This document shows, piece by piece, positions 20,601 to 29,600 of a stretch of 64,000 nt of DNA (position 1 is the first letter of the stretch; every line of letters begins with the position of its first letter). Made by a program: the position numbers. The DNA is from Escherichia coli (lineage in GTDB: Bacteria; Pseudomonadota; Gammaproteobacteria; Enterobacterales; Enterobacteriaceae). The stretch lies in the NCBI RefSeq assembly GCF_003018115.1, contig NZ_CP027458.1. One strand, written 5' to 3'.

Positions 20601-23600
20601 TTCCACTTCATCAAGTGCCTGTGCGGATTCACTGGCCCGCTTTCCGCTGTATCCGGTAAACCGCTCCGCCCGTGCTTCCTGACGTTCAGCGAGCGTGCTG
20701 TCTTCATCCTCAATCTCTCCGGCAAGTGAGAGGAGCACGTCTTCCCGGCCCGGTGTCCAGGCTGGCGCGACAAACAGCGCCTGTTTGGGTGCCCAGCGGA
20801 AACCGGCATCATGCACTTTTTTATACGTCTCCGGGTCAAGACGTGACGCGGCATACAGGCGCAGTTTGTTGTCATCCGGTGAGTAGGTCGCGCGGTACAT
20901 CTGCACAGGGCTGGCGGCTTCCGGGGCGGTCATGGTGATTGCTGATAATGTCATAAAATGTTCTCCTTCCGTCTGTTGCCGCCCCTCGCGGGGCGGCTCA
21001 CCTCATCAGTTAAAAGCGCGTTTCAGTTCGAGTGTGCGGAGCACCTGCCCGAAGGCCGTGTTTTTCATGGCGGGGATGTGTACACCACGCCCCCGGCGAA
21101 AACTCCGGGCTATGTGTCGCCCGAAGGCTTTCAGCACGGGGTCAATTTCCGGCGCGGGGATGTCTTCGCGTCTGAAACGGGTATGACGACGGGGCTTTAC
21201 AGCCGCTGCGGAAGGTGAAACAATGCTTACAGTCATAAATGGATTCCTTATGACAGGTTGGTAACAGTGCCTTAAAGACTGTTCGCGCAGTCTCTTCGGC
21301 GTGGATTAAGCAGGTCCCTGACCTGCTTTTTTCATATCTGTATCTGACGTTCTCCGGTGTTTTCCTCCTTCTGTTCCTGCGTTCTCATTACCTGCCAGCC
21401 GGATGGCTGACAGAACAAATAAATGCGTATTGCCGGAGTCTGAAATAAATCCTGATTTTTAAAGAACATCACCCGTTGAGTTTCGGGAGCCGCGGTTTTG
21501 ACGTTTCGCGGGAACCTGCTGCTGTATTCCCTGTGGTATGAACTTCACCCGTTTGAGAACCTTCGCCGCAAGGGGCATCACTGCCACGGCCTGACGCACC
21601 TGTCCTGGGCAGAACGCAAAATTTTTTACCGGGTTTTAGGTAAAAAATTTTGTGGGCTGTTCATTTACCCTGGACAGTCAGTGCGGCAGGTTGTGGCTGT
21701 CTATGCCCCGGCGACAGGGACTCATACGGGTGTGTGGCACCCGGCAGGCAATGAGCAGGGACCCGCTGCAACGACGTGAAGCGCGGTTTGCGAAACGGCG
21801 TTGCCCCTTACATCCCGGCTGCCTTTTGCCGGGATGCCGGGAGCGCAGGCCACGGCGCGACAGAGGCGGCGCGACCGGAACGGTCGCTGCAAGCCCGGGG
21901 GTTCGCGTCAGGGATGGAAGCCCGCCAGGGCGGAGACAGCTCCGCTGGCTCCGTTCACGACAGCCCGCCCCGCCAGGGGGACGCCCGGAAAAGGCATAAA
22001 CAGGAGAGGAATGGAAAGAGGAAGAAGAAGAACAGTAACCACAGAAACATAACATCAGGAAAAAACATTCCGGACACATCACAAACGGGAAGGGTAACGG
22101 GCGACGCGCCAGCGTGGCCCGCATCCCTTCCGGCAGGCGCCAGCCTGCCAGGGGTTTTCGCGCGGGCTGACAGGCGGCCTCCACCGCCTGCCCTGTATCA
22201 CCTGTGCCTGCTGCCCTGAAGGATGTAGTGACCACCGAGGAAAACCGCCTGCTGATTCGCCACAAAATCACAGATTTCATCAACAATCTGCGCAGTGGTG
22301 AGCGGTTTCTGCCCCATTTCACGACGCCGCGCATTAATCACGGCCCTGTAATTACGCAGAATTTCGCGGGTTTCCGTGCTGATATTCATTACCCGTTCTC
22401 CCCGTCCAGCGCCTGACGCATCAACCGCATAATCTCACGTTCTTCCCTGACAAATGCGTCACCGTCGCCCCCGTTCTCGCTCCCTACAGCATGGAGGCGA
22501 TAAATTTCACTACCAGCCATCACCATCACTTTTTCCAGCAGCACCGCAGGGACTGTTACAAGACGGTTTACGCGCTTTTCCTCCATCAGTTCACGAACAA
22601 CGTCGTGAACAATGCTGACATCAGCACCATGCTCAAAGGCATCGTCCAGCCGCTGCATGACGGTTTCCAGCTCATCGTCTGTCAGACTCCAGTCCTGGGC
22701 TATGTGACGCACATCCCCACGGGTCAGCACCACGGCAAAAACGCATTCACTGTCCGGCACGTCTGTATCCAGCACTTCGCGGATAATTTCTTTAACAGTA
22801 CAGTACATGTTCTCGTCTCCTTTACAGGGGCGGCATCGCCGCCCCGTCCGTTAATCAGTCCAGTGCTGCGTAAATCGCGTTGCATTCGGGGTGAAATTCG
22901 ATGTGGCTCCACAACTGCGCATCGCGCATCCGGTACAGGTGTGTCAGTCCCGCATCACCGCTGTCGTGGTACAGCCACAACTGTCGGTTAATCACAAGGG
23001 AAGTCAGAATGATACCTGCGGCATCAGCACTCACAGTGCGGTCAAACCAGTTTTCACCGTTGACCAGATGAAAACGGTCGCCATCCGGCATCATGTAACC
23101 GCCACCGTCCGGCAGGCGGATGAAATGCCAGAAGCCTCCCTGATATTCCGGCATCATTTTTTGCGCCAGCGCGTACACATACGCCTCGGCATACAGAAAA
23201 TCGTTGCCAAACAGGTAAGGCAGAAAAGACAGACGGTCGCACTCTTCAACGTTCAGAGTGACAGGTTTCGCATACTGCATGGGATTTCCTCCGTTGTTCA
23301 CATATTCCGCGACACCGGGCGGTGCCGTGCCTCCATCTTTGCCGGGCCTGCAGGGTTGCAAGGGCGCAAGGGAAGCCGCAGCCTGACGCACACGGCTGAC
23401 GGGAGTTGGAGGGTGAGACCGCGAAATCTGAGCGGGTGAACGACCGGAAAATCACGGCAGACGGGAAGGAGGGACCGGGTGACCGCAGCGGTTCACCTTA
23501 CCTTGCAACCCGCCCGCAGAAGCCCGGCTACGATGGAGGCACGGCACAGCCCGCACACGACGCTGAGGCCACATAACTGAAAACCCACAAGGCCATGCCC

Positions 23601-26600: not shown

Positions 26601-29600
26601 AGGAACACCGTTCAGAACACCACCGTTGAAGCCATTCACTTCAACATCCAGGCGGGTCGGCAGAACCGTCAGCAGGTCAAACGGCATGGTTTTTTCCGGC
26701 AGTACGTTGTCACACAGACGGTTCCACCACACCGATACATCCTCGTTACTCCAGAAGCCACACCAGTCACCTCTTTTTGCGGTGAAAAGTACGGTGATGG
26801 TATCCCTGACATCGTCCGGTAATCCTTCCCAGCGACGCTGTCCAGTACCGCTCTGCAGCCAGAGTTCATGCAGCATCAGGCAGTTTTGTTCATCCAGCAG
26901 TACACCGTTCTGCAGGTGTGTCAGCCAGCGGGTGAACGCGATATTCTCCGGCGATACAACGCCACGCCCGGCAGCCGTCAGTCCGGGGCATGGTTCAAAC
27001 CGCACATCTTCAGTGGTCTGCAGAAGTCCGGCACTTCCGGCCAGAAACAGCTGAATACCTTCATTTATGGCGCGGCGATAAAACGGTGTGACGGCACCAC
27101 TGGCCAGTCGTTTAATCTCAGCGATCTGTGCCGGTTCACCAGAAAAATGCATACGGTTACTGCACCAGTTTGGCATGGGAATTCTCCTCTCACATGCGGC
27201 CTCCATCAGGCCGTGCCGGCACGTTAACCGGGCTGCATACGAATGCAGGTGCGGCCCCGAAGCCGCAGCGCGTGGAGGAGGAACGACGAAACGTGACCGG
27301 GTGAGGAGGCCGGCGACAGCGACACACTTGCATCGGATGCAGCCCGGTTAACGTGCCGGCACGGCCTGGGTAACCAGGTATTTTGTCCACAGAACCGTGC
27401 ACAAAATGCTGTGGATAAGCTGGACACAGCACTCCACAGCAGGCATACAGCCACACCCTCAGAGAATTGATCGTTTTTTAGTCAGAACAATGACATTTGA
27501 CTGTGTGCGGATTCAGTTATTAGAATACTGTATATGCATACAGCAAAAAAGAGAAGGGAGATGAGAACATGATCCGCATTGAAATTCTTTTCGACCGCCA
27601 GAGCACAAAAAACCTCAAATCAGGCACACTTCAGGCGCTACAGAATGAAATCGAACAACGTCTGAAACCACACTACCCGGAAATCTGGCTGCGTATAGAC
27701 CAGGGCAGCGCCCCGTCTCTATCTGTCACAGGAGCCCGCAACGACAAGGATAAAGAACGTATCCTGTCTCTGCTGGAAGAAATCTGGCAGGACGACAGCT
27801 GGCTGCCTGCAGCATGAGTACCGTTTATCACCGTCCGGCTGACCCTTCAGGCGATGACAGTTACGTGCGACCGTTGTTTGCCGATCGTTGCCAGGCCGGT
27901 TTTCCTTCGCCTGCCACGGATTATGCTGAGCAGGAACTGGATCTGAACAGCTATTGCATCAGCAGACCTGCAGCCACCTTCTTTCTGCGCGCCAGCGGTG
28001 AATCGATGAACCAGGCTGGCGTGCAGAATGGTGATCTGCTGGTAGTGGACAGGGCCGAAAAACCACAACACGGGGACATCGTTATCGCTGAGATCGACGG
28101 TGAGTTCACCGTCAAACGACTGCGGTTGCGCCCACGCCCGGCACTGGAGCCGGTTTCAGACAGCCCGGAGTTCCGCACACTGTATCCGGAAAACATCTGT
28201 ATTTTTGGTGTTGTCACTCACGTGATACACAGGACGCGGGAGTTACGCTGATGTTTGCATTGGCTGATATCAACAGTTTCTACGCCTCATGTGAAAAAGT
28301 TTTCCGCCCGGACCTTCGCAACGAACCGGTCATCGTACTCAGCAATAACGATGGCTGTGTGATCGCGCGCAGCCCGGAGGCAAAAGCCCTTGGCATCAGA
28401 ATGGGGCAGCCCAGGTTTCAGGTGAGACAAATGCGCCTGGAGAAGAAAATACATGTATTTTCCAGCAATTATGCGCTGTACCACAGCATGAGCCAACGGG
28501 TTATGGCTGTTCTGGAGTCGCTTTCTCCCGCAGTTGAGCCCTACTCAATTGATGAAATGTTCATTGATTTGCGGGGGATAAATCATTGCATCTCTCCGGA
28601 GGTTTTTGGTCATCAGCTCAGGGAACTGGTAAAGAGCTGGACAGGACTCACCATGGGGGTGGGCATTGCGCCTACAAAAACGCTGGCTAAAAGTGCACAG
28701 TGGGCAACAAAGCAATGGCCACAGTTTTCCGGTGTGGTCGCGCTGACGGCAGAAAACCGTAATCGGATCTTGAAGCTACTGGGGCTGCAGCCAGTTGGTG
28801 AGGTCTGGGGAGTAGGACGCAGACTGACGGAAAAGCTGAATGCGCTGGGTATTAACACAGCACTGCAACTGGCGCAGGCTAACACGGCATTCATCCGGAA
28901 AAACTTCAGCATCATTCTTGAGCGTACGGTACGCGAACTCAACGGCGAGTCCTGCATATCCCTGGAAGAAGCACCACCGGCAAAACAGCAGATTGTCTGT
29001 AGTCGCAGTTTTGGTGAACGAATCACAGACAAAAATGCCATGCACCAGGCTGTTGTTCAGTATGCAGAGCGGGCCGCTGAGAAACTACGTGGGGAGCGTC
29101 AGTATTGTCGGCAGGTGACGACATTTGTACGGACATCCCCCTTTGCAGTAAAAGAACCCTGTTACAGCAATGCCGCTGTGGAAAAGCTTTCATTGCCACA
29201 CAGGACAGCCGGGACATTATTGCCGCCGCATGCAGAGCCTTAAACCATGTCTGGCGTGAAGGGTACCGCTATATGAAGGCAGGAGTCATGCTGGCTGATT
29301 TCACACCATCGGGTATAGCGCAGACGGGATTATTTGATGAAATCCAGCCCCGTAAAAACAGTGAAAAGTTAATGAAAACACTCGATGAACTGAACCTGTC
29401 GGGAAAAGGGAAAGTGTGGTTTGCGGGGCGAGGATCCGCCCCTGAATGGCAAATGAAACGGGAAATGCTATCGCCTTCGTATACAACACAATGGACTGAG
29501 ATCCCCATTGCTTCATTCTGATATATCAGAATAATTTTTTCATTTTAAGACGCACATCATTCATTGCCTCCTGCACCGAATCAGTAGCAGAAGGAGGCAT

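Follow-up and report, generated by a model that had tools for sequence, protein, structure and literature searches.

A 64,000-nucleotide (nt) stretch of Escherichia coli DNA (contig NZ_CP027458.1, assembly GCF_003018115.1; referred to as a whole as the window) carries three long inverted repeats, which we designate E1 (23316-23553), E2 (25924-26148), and E3 (27207-27368), all read on the plus strand. We consider it likely that these repeats are hairpin promoters which act while the plasmid is single-stranded, E1 belonging to class 2, E2 to class 3, and E3 to a class-2-type family, and that the perfect palindrome formed by E3 in this plasmid arose by two conversions. Anatomy, homology, covariation, and allele rarity were computed here, while start sites, early induction, roadblock activity, and transfer phenotypes are published for orthologs; from these together we infer that E3 may fire and what its perfect allele may do.

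An inverted-repeat search of the whole window, with arms at most 400 nt apart, returned E1, E2, and E3 as three of the four longest repeats, just where a preliminary description of this region had placed them. The E1 arms (23316-23347 and 23522-23553) span 32 nt at 91% complementarity, the E2 arms (25924-25953 and 26119-26148) 30 nt at 83%, and the E3 arms (27207-27242 and 27333-27368) 36 nt at 97%. Within E3, 32 nt are perfectly complementary (27207-27238 and 27337-27368) across a 98-nt spacer of 67% G+C; a perfect repeat as long as this is expected by chance about 1e-12 times per 64 kb. The GC-rich spacer had been described correctly, as had the perfect repeat apart from its length (31 nt) and the position of its right arm, which was one base off: the partner of 27208-27238 is 27337-27367 and not 27336-27366.

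Each repeat folds far better as single-stranded DNA (ssDNA) than shuffled sequence does, a comparison proposed with the preliminary description. On the plus strand, folding energies are -76 kcal/mol for E1 (z = -5.76), -74 kcal/mol for E2 (z = -4.20), and -70 kcal/mol for E3 (z = -8.90), and in each case none of 200 shuffles folded as well. We also repeated a published mining recipe (300-nt windows, DNA parameters, cutoff of -75 kcal/mol) along the transferred strand from 9900 to 28300. The segments below the cutoff were E1, E2, E3, and three copies of the class 1 element Frpo, together with one borderline window (18870-19169, -75.9 kcal/mol) and windows abutting the Frpo copies. The latter lie on the plus strand at 12567-12916, 18200-18549 (5' of ssb), and 21478-21810 and are 87%, 88%, and 80% identical, respectively, to ssiD of the F plasmid. 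In all six hairpins, the transferred strand folds 2.6 to 11.7 kcal/mol better than its complement.

E1 to E3 are unrelated in sequence to Frpo, as had been claimed. BLAST comparison of the three repeats with the three Frpo copies gave only chance matches of 9 to 20 nt (E ≥ 0.026), and a BLAST search with five known class 1 sequences (F ssiD and ColIb-P9 ssi type) matched only the three Frpo copies and none of E1 to E3. In Rfam 15, none of the three had a match at the gathering threshold; the sub-threshold chance hits were MIR1437 (39 bits versus 168) and Erse (17.5 versus 138).

The strand assignment follows from the layout of the plasmid. The window contains the leading region of an IncF-type conjugative plasmid and matches thousands of enterobacterial plasmids, the closest being an IncFIA/FIB E. 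coli plasmid (99.8% identity across 4.8 kb). From the annotation of the closest plasmid and the open reading frames (ORFs) of the window, traM lies at 9249-9632 on the minus strand and the SLT gene at 9953-10555 on the plus strand, which places oriT between them, near 9650-9950. The tra genes and oriT are thus to the left of the leading genes, and the minus strand holds every gene from oriT to about 27200 (psiA, psiB, a parB-like gene, ssb, klcA, the methylase gene, and the DUF1281 gene). In F-type transfer, the strand exits oriT 5' end first, into the leading region. Because the leading genes are on the minus strand and oriT and tra are on the left, the plus strand is the transferred strand and the template of the leading genes. 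A LexA-controlled dinI-like/umuDC-type (imp) operon is divergent and begins at 27569, so we take approximately 27400 as the far edge of the leading region.

Hairpins of this kind have been studied in related plasmids. Wen et al. (NAR, December 2025; PMC12672017) profiled newly formed transconjugants of the IncI1 plasmid pESBL and found six strongly induced operons, each behind a large hairpin, with six start sites mapped by 5' rapid amplification of cDNA ends; the mining recipe used above, which is independent of homology, is theirs. Class 1 in that study comprises ssi1-3/Frpo, class 2 the hairpins 5' of klcA and ardA, and class 3 the hairpin 5' of M.EcoGIX, with classes 2 and 3 stated to be conserved in F. 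A 2026 preprint (10.64898/2026.01.09.698686) names the corresponding F elements ssp2 and ssp3 and reports that complementary-strand synthesis halts at ssp2 until UvrD opens the hairpin and that transfer into restricting hosts drops when ssp2 is deleted. The proposal that the repeats represent families beyond Frpo is therefore right for classes 2 and 3, although both are already in print. Likewise, the proposal that they drive the leading genes holds for E1 and E2 as orthologs of mapped promoters, while promoter activity of E3 is a prediction from its anatomy.

Over 340 to 367 nt, E1 matches the F element that precedes the klcA homolog at 90% identity and the two class 2 copies of pESBL (5' of klcA and ardA) at 89% and 88%. 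By this homology, E1 is an ortholog of an experimentally characterized class 2 ssDNA promoter and is already known. Its hairpin ends 36 nt from the start codon of the first gene behind it, the klcA/ardB-type antirestriction gene (22855-23280, minus strand; Pfam Antirestrict PF03230, E = 2.4e-26; annotated "antirestriction protein" in the closest relative plasmid, L001). The best position weight matrix (PWM) candidate on the strand places a -35 element (TTGCAA, 23503-23508) and a -10 element (TACGAT, 23529-23534) on the 3' arm at a spacing of 20 nt, the -10 being partly mismatched with the 5' arm (7 of 9 positions between the flanking clamps described below are complementary). Read in this way, the 3' arm would be the nontemplate strand, and transcription would leave the hairpin leftward toward klcA. 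In the E1 family alignment (A2), 16 of 52 pairs carry compensatory changes. The spacing differs between plasmids: E1 in the window and in loci L001, L007, L008, L017, and L052 has 20 nt between -35 and -10 on the 3' arm and 15 nt on the 5' arm, whereas F (L002, 12485-12715) and pESBL show the reverse, with 15 nt on the 3' arm and a 4- to 5-nt bulge on the 5' arm. Both versions remain paired through coordinated changes of the two arms.

E2 shares 97.6% identity with the pESBL hairpin 5' of M.EcoGIX and 95.5% with its F counterpart, ssp3; on this similarity, it is an ortholog of the characterized class 3 ssDNA promoter and, like E1, already known. The first gene behind it encodes an orphan DNA methyltransferase of the M.EcoGIX type (25181-25864, minus strand; NCBIfam NF010253, E = 1.6e-146). 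The matches listed in a PLSDB search with E2 were all at least 95% identical; diverged homologs (80 to 82%, from Enterobacter, Klebsiella grimontii, and Erwinia) came from loci gathered for another purpose. In the alignment that includes them (A3), 11 of 69 pairs are compensatory. The best PWM matches to sigma-70 boxes in E2 fall in apical loops and were rejected; what is conserved instead is only nACACT, located in a bubble. In the window this candidate -10-like hexamer reads GACACT (26129-26134, plus strand) and lies on the 3' arm in an internal loop between two G+C-rich helices. The A at position 2 and the T at position 6 are invariant in all eight A3 sequences, and the consensus structure leaves the hexamer partly unpaired. 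A 101-aa ORF (25941-26246, minus strand), called "hypothetical protein" in thousands of plasmid records, spans the whole class 3 hairpin together with the terminator of the neighboring DUF1281 gene; with a translation rich in Arg, Gly, and Pro that NCBIfam does not match, it is probably a gene miscalled on a structured noncoding element. KlcA, DUF1380, and DUF1281 likewise found no match in NCBIfam, and Pfam identified KlcA and DUF1281.

E1 and E3 share a 3'-arm signature, CTTGCA-N9(14)-GCCCGGY-TAnnnT-NNN-GGCACGGC, and the apical motifs AAGCCGCAGC and ACCGGGTGA. By this signature, E1 and E3 form one family and E2 is a separate one, so that the three repeats are not all unrelated to one another. 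We scanned 100,044 species genomes with the signature, constraining the 3' arm only, and recovered 56 loci, nearly all from Enterobacterales (Pantoea, Erwinia, Klebsiella, Enterobacter, Salmonella, Yersinia, and others); the few in other assemblies are obvious contaminants. Across all sequence gathered, the window included, the register of the signature is identical in 76 matches, and most signature loci have a complementary 5' arm at the expected distance. The hairpins fall into two size classes, of approximately 230 to 240 nt (E1 type) and 165 to 180 nt, and lie about 30 to 40 nt 5' of the start codons of ardA, klcA-sized genes (141 to 143 aa), orphan methylase genes, or, for E3, the DUF1281 gene. 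In the alignment that includes E3 (A1), 96% of cells in 42 pairs are paired and 15 pairs have changed on both sides; only 2 to 6 two-sided changes appear when the partners are slid, and none of 500 shuffles reached the observed values.

The same alignments reveal a regularity, found in the present analysis and not taken from a published criterion, in how the -10 element is held. Throughout the family, two invariant G+C clamps, GCCCGGY and GGCACGGC, flank the -10, and in 53 of the 56 unique hairpins it sits in a mismatch bubble between them, with 2 to 7 of the 9 interclamp positions complementary and the consensus structures leaving the -10 unpaired. In 17 of 19 sequences, the second T of the -35 retains G.T pairing. 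When the complement of the 5' arm is read instead, as it would be in duplex DNA, the -10 lacks A at position 2 in 46 of 56 hairpins. The imperfections may thus premelt the -10 and restrict a proper promoter to the folded single strand, which fits the published switch-off of such promoters on duplex conversion. One class-2-type hairpin 5' of ardA, on a plasmid of Erwinia sp. OLFS4 (L037, 2350-2585), has a fully paired -10 region (9 of 9), an independent closure of the bubble outside the E3 lineage. The signature scan also showed that the orphan methylase gene is preceded in many Klebsiella, Pantoea, Erwinia, and Yersinia plasmids by a class-2-type hairpin and not by class 3 (L003, 3001-3069, on a Klebsiella pneumoniae plasmid; L006, L009, L019, L033, L036, L040, L044, and others). 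Because class 2-type and class 3 hairpins are swapped before the methylase gene in this way, hairpin promoters appear to behave as exchangeable cassettes before antidefense genes.

E3 is an unreported member of this family, judged by its sequence, and a candidate promoter of the gene behind it. That gene (26250-27176, minus strand) encodes a 308-aa DUF1281/Api92-like protein (Pfam DUF1281, E = 1.7e-49; DUF1281_C, E = 8.9e-15), and its start codon, preceded by a Shine-Dalgarno sequence, is 30 nt from the hairpin base. The 3' arm carries the exact signature CTTGCA-N9-GCCCGGY-TAnnnT-NNN-GGCACGGC, within which the best PWM candidate pairs a -35 (TTGCAT, 27328-27333) with a -10 (TAACGT, 27349-27354) on the plus strand at a spacing of 15 nt, in the register seen at the 56 genome loci. 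By homology the link to class 2 is partial (74% across 73 nt to F ssp2 and 79% across 71 nt to a Klebsiella relative); over its whole length, E3 can be aligned with a hairpin family of about 178 nt from Pantoea and Erwinia (A1; mean column identity, 80%), and it lacks approximately 14 nt of the apical domain of these relatives. It is a shorter class-2-type member and probably a weaker ssDNA promoter for the DUF1281 gene. E3 is also found in F (93% identity) and pESBL (95.5%), where it likewise borders the leading region and lies immediately 5' of the DUF1281 gene, and more than 4200 IncF- and IncI-type plasmids carry it with 95 to 99% conservation. We did not find E3 described in the literature searched, and no "ssp4" appears in 10.64898/2026.01.09.698686 or PMC13370423. 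Its best 300-nt window reaches -70.5 kcal/mol in pESBL and -70.0 kcal/mol in F, short of the -75 kcal/mol cutoff, which could explain its absence from structure-based mining; the shortfall does not explain why the DUF1281 gene is not listed as induced.

The perfect palindrome that drew attention to E3 is not what marks function: family members typically have imperfect stems in which a mismatch bubble holds the -10. The E3 3' arm is identical in the window, L001, F, and pESBL, and only the 5' arm differs. In F and pESBL, the 5' arm reads GCCGCACCTGTAACCGGGCGACCGCATACG, leaving the -10 bubble (4 of 9 interclamp positions paired) and a 4-nt bulge, with a stem stability of -50 kcal/mol. In L001 it reads GCCGGCACGTTAACCGGGCGACCGCATACG, which closes the bubble (-62.5 kcal/mol), and in the window it reads GCCGGCACGTTAACCGGG followed, after a three-position gap, by CTGCATACG, which also removes the bulge (-70 kcal/mol). 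The converted segment spans 27219-27234 on the plus strand. Between the window and L001, a 3-nt deletion and a substitution are clustered at 27232-27234, and elsewhere there are 5 scattered single-nucleotide polymorphisms in 5.4 kb.

Searches of other plasmids, one of the follow-ups suggested at the outset, found E1 to E3 all present in F and pESBL and the perfect form of E3 in none. With an allele-specific query, we found the F type in at least 3621 plasmids and the intermediate in 49, mostly from E. coli, while the perfect allele occurred in 0 of 72,556 plasmids (PLSDB), 0 of 5,426 complete E. coli genomes, and no metagenome contig of the Joint Genome Institute (JGI). On these sequences, the perfect palindrome is private to this plasmid and recently derived, and it abolishes the feature conserved in the family. 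Quasipalindrome template switching in E. coli gives clustered changes that make one arm the exact complement of the other (PMC7202029). Because each step in the series is a cluster of changes giving an exact complement of the 3' arm, we attribute the series to two successive template-switch conversions of the 5' arm.

Together, these observations suggest the following mechanism. Each repeat stands on the transferred strand just 5' of an operon (headed by klcA, the methylase gene, or the DUF1281 gene) and after the terminator of the preceding unit where one exists. On the entering single strand, each would fold into a long hairpin whose 3' arm supplies sigma-70-type -35 and -10 elements as the nontemplate strand and whose 5' arm serves as the template. 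Host RNA polymerase would start near the base of the stem and run leftward along the 5' arm into the gene, and complementary-strand synthesis would then remove the hairpin and switch the promoter off. In the class-2-type hairpins, the -10 (TAnnnT) would lie in the bubble between the clamps and, with the complement of the 5' arm usually lacking the key A, a promoter would exist only in the folded form. In the perfect E3, a first templated conversion would have closed the -10 bubble and a second removed the spacer bulge. The likely consequences are harder open-complex formation in the hairpin and a stiffer obstacle to complementary-strand synthesis. Most likely, the perfect allele lowers ssDNA promoter activity and puts the same -10 into the duplex form, which in the window reads CTGCAT-16-TAACGT 5' of the DUF1281 gene.

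Several results weigh against this interpretation, most of them at E3. Wen et al., whose per-gene data were outside the material covered, do not include the pESBL counterpart of E3 in their six early-induced promoters. The E3 boxes (TTGCAT-15-TAACGT) are weak, with 3 of 6 consensus matches per hexamer, and a generic promoter scan does not call them. The -10 in the window is fully paired (9 of 9 interclamp positions) in a G+C-rich 36-bp stem, unlike that in 95% of the family. All E3-type 3' arms in the databases are identical, so the covariation that applies to E3 comes from distant relatives. At E2, the PWM search gave no convincing -35, and the perfect E3 allele is known from one sequence, which may be an assembly or polishing artifact. 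We see about an even chance that E3 fires as an ssDNA promoter, an estimate lowered by its absence from the induced set in pESBL and by its weak boxes and raised by the full family anatomy, the fixed distance to an intact gene, and the conservation in more than 4200 plasmids.

A bolder version of the promoter interpretation, which we hold only tentatively, is that E3 is a seventh, unreported ssDNA promoter of IncF and IncI plasmids in which the bubble and the -35 G.T pair keep the duplex silent. The two conversions would then have erased both safeguards and copied a functional -10 with a 16-nt spacer into the duplex, leading either to constitutive expression or to a promoter that is killed while the roadblock grows stronger.

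The alternative that fares best, although we regard it as unlikely, is that E3 is a structural element and no promoter: either a site where complementary-strand synthesis is blocked or pauses, or one component of a priming site that includes the adjacent DnaA-box hairpins, in a role that the perfect stem would strengthen. Its exclusion from the induced pESBL set would then need no explanation, and the stepwise climb in stem stability from -50 to -70 kcal/mol would be the expected trend. The related ssp2 is a UvrD-resolved roadblock at which the stall is insensitive to rifampicin (10.64898/2026.01.09.698686), E3 lies at the limit of the leading region not only in the window but also in F and pESBL, and the small hairpins that adjoin it on the 3' side (z = -4.3) contain one perfect DnaA box and one with a single mismatch. 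Against this, E3 retains the complete signature of the family, placed on the correct arm and in register, and a start codon with a Shine-Dalgarno sequence lies 30 nt away, as in its relatives. That the 3' arm is invariant while the 5' arm changes agrees with selection acting on the arm that carries the promoter. Nor need the two roles exclude each other, since ssp2 has both.

The block 3' of E3 deserves description in its own right. The small hairpins occupy 27381-27441 on the transferred strand and are conserved in F and pESBL; they hold the perfect DnaA box (TTATCCACA, 27410-27418, minus strand) and the one-mismatch box (27383-27391). DnaA-box hairpins have been described as single-strand initiation sites, and this block resembles them. 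By analogy, complementary-strand synthesis could be primed here, at the leading-region edge.

It is less probable still that E3 is a decaying relic of a class-2-type promoter, free of selection and pushed toward a perfect palindrome by template-switch bias. Decay would account for the lack of reported induction in pESBL, for the loss of approximately 14 nt of the apical domain relative to its relatives, and for a history in which closure of the bubble (49 plasmids) was followed by loss of the bulge (one plasmid). Relaxed selection is hard to square with 95 to 99% conservation in more than 4200 IncF and IncI plasmids, an unvarying 3' arm, and a gene that is still intact behind the element. The closed bubble 5' of ardA in the Erwinia plasmid further indicates that closure need not mean lost function.

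Slightly lower again do we rate the possibility that the perfect E3 is an assembly or polishing artifact, in which reads of one arm were misplaced on the other and the consensus was homogenized. The absence of the allele from every PLSDB plasmid, complete E. coli genome, and JGI contig searched is what such an error predicts, as is the fact that, within the hairpin, the window differs from the closest plasmid at 27232-27234 only. Against this, arms of 32 to 36 nt around a unique 98-nt spacer should be anchored by reads of normal length, a similar intermediate allele is real in 49 independent records, and the change is the exact product of a single template-switch event.

That the repeats are terminators of upstream genes or remnants of mobile elements resembling miniature inverted-repeat transposable elements is very improbable: they are long, G+C-rich, intergenic inverted repeats with multicopy relatives in many plasmids, but no T tract follows the stems, separate canonical terminators are present, E3 has no codirectional upstream gene, the hairpins of different taxa keep one position and orientation toward the downstream start codon, compensatory changes keep a branched structure with a conserved unpaired -10, and no target-site duplications were seen. 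We accordingly rejected the hairpins as intrinsic terminators, and the terminator-only outcome that had been named as a way to disprove their role does not hold. The terminator of the 256-aa gene upstream of E1 is at 23669-23688 (minus strand; scan match GGCGGGGAAAAATCTCCGCC followed by TTTTCC). That of the DUF1281 gene, upstream of E2, is at 26218-26237 (minus strand; ACGGGCGG-GCTA-CCGCCCGT followed by TTCTTTTCC) and was read by eye, as the automatic scan did not list it.

Other features were noted around the hairpins. A flank motif of the general form (A)AAG(C/A)GGAGC-N3-6-GCGACATCCTT(T/A) lies 45 to 90 nt 3' of E1 and E2, between the upstream terminator and the hairpin, and on the plus strand takes the form GCGGAGC-N5-GGCGACATCCTTT 3' of E1 (23617-23640) and AGAGGAGC-N3-GGCGACATCCTTT 3' of E2 (26183-26205). 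It thus stands behind two different promoter classes and follows neither E3 nor the Frpo copies. With at most one mismatch, GCGACATCCTT is present 3' of 38 of 63 class-2-like hairpins (Pantoea, Erwinia, Klebsiella, and others). A small ORF was considered for this motif and rejected, as the internal spacing varies. The E3 3' arm occurs alone, without a 5' arm, in L021 (an Alicyclobacillus plasmid), L032 (Raphidiopsis), L061 (Aeromicrobium), and H85 (a 7.7-kb E. coli plasmid). In F, the E3 3' arm adjoins sopC, and the lone arms look like leftover bacterial artificial chromosome or fosmid vector (F mini-replicon), a fragment of which ends inside E3. Near oriT, a homolog of F ssiE lies just beyond the SLT gene (10550-10738; 90.5% across 190 nt) and is followed by a perfect palindrome at 10800-10854 with 27-nt arms and a 1-nt loop (ATGATAATATAAGTAAATCCCCGAAAA and its complement). 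Rfam places the antisense RNA AS-pc01 (antisense to pHK01_035) at 21231-21331 on the plus strand with 74.4 bits, below the gathering score of 79, and a terminator-like hairpin (21308-21328) adjoins this match.

Leading-region hairpin promoters control antirestriction, methylation, and SOS inhibition in the first minutes of plasmid establishment and are candidate targets for blocking the spread of resistance plasmids. E1 and E2 add nothing new here beyond showing that the published class 2 and class 3 promoters are present in this plasmid. What is new is a sequence signature, supported by covariation, that retrieves the class-2-type family across Enterobacterales; the placement of the -10 in a bubble whose duplex counterpart lacks the key A, which is a testable rule for single-strand-only function; a candidate seventh promoter present in F and pESBL; and a natural allele series (bubble and bulge, bubble closed, perfect palindrome) that offers a ready-made experiment on the bubble rule.

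Compared with known systems, E1 resembles pESBL class 2 and F ssp2 in sequence (88 to 90% identity), position 5' of klcA, and hairpin structure and differs in a 3'-arm spacer that is 5 nt longer (20 versus 15 nt), with compensating changes in the 5' arm. E2 and the class 3 elements of pESBL and F (ssp3) have the same methylase gene behind a branched hairpin and show no difference of substance; to class 3, the present analysis adds the 80 to 82% homologs, the 11 compensatory pairs, and the candidate bubble -10 nACACT. E3 shares with class 2 the 3'-arm signature, the two G+C clamps, the apical AAGCCGCAGC and ACCGGGTGA, and the distance of 30 nt from the start codon. It is approximately 65 nt shorter, has T for C before the -10, precedes a DUF1281 gene, is not reported as a promoter, and in this plasmid has no -10 bubble. 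With the class 1 elements, Frpo/ssiD of F and ssi1-3 of ColIb-P9 (Masai and Arai 1997; Bates et al. 1999), the three repeats would have in common a transferred-strand hairpin that rebuilds -35 and -10 elements in ssDNA only, 5' of leading genes. Class 1 differs in showing no sequence similarity to E1 to E3 and in its size of approximately 330 nt with an A+T-rich apical part; for Frpo, we found no citable statement in the literature that mismatches are required for activity.

Two of the candidates that Samuel et al. (2024; PMC11541004, Supplementary Table 2) identified computationally in an insect-gut metagenome, Frpo'4 and Frpo*1, belong to the family of A1 and A2; Frpo*3 is listed beside them. 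E1 is 79% identical to Frpo'4 across 343 nt, the E3 3' arm is 77% identical to Frpo*1 across 75 nt, and family loci L042 and L043 come from Candidatus Erwinia dacicola. The authors did not assign the Frpo' and Frpo* candidates to class 2 and gave no analysis of bubbles, clamps, or covariation. Finally, the E3 allele series parallels quasipalindrome template switching (PMC7202029) in its clustered multibase changes that complete one arm. It differs in being inferred from natural alleles and not from a reporter, and in that its target is a structured promoter whose imperfections are conserved.

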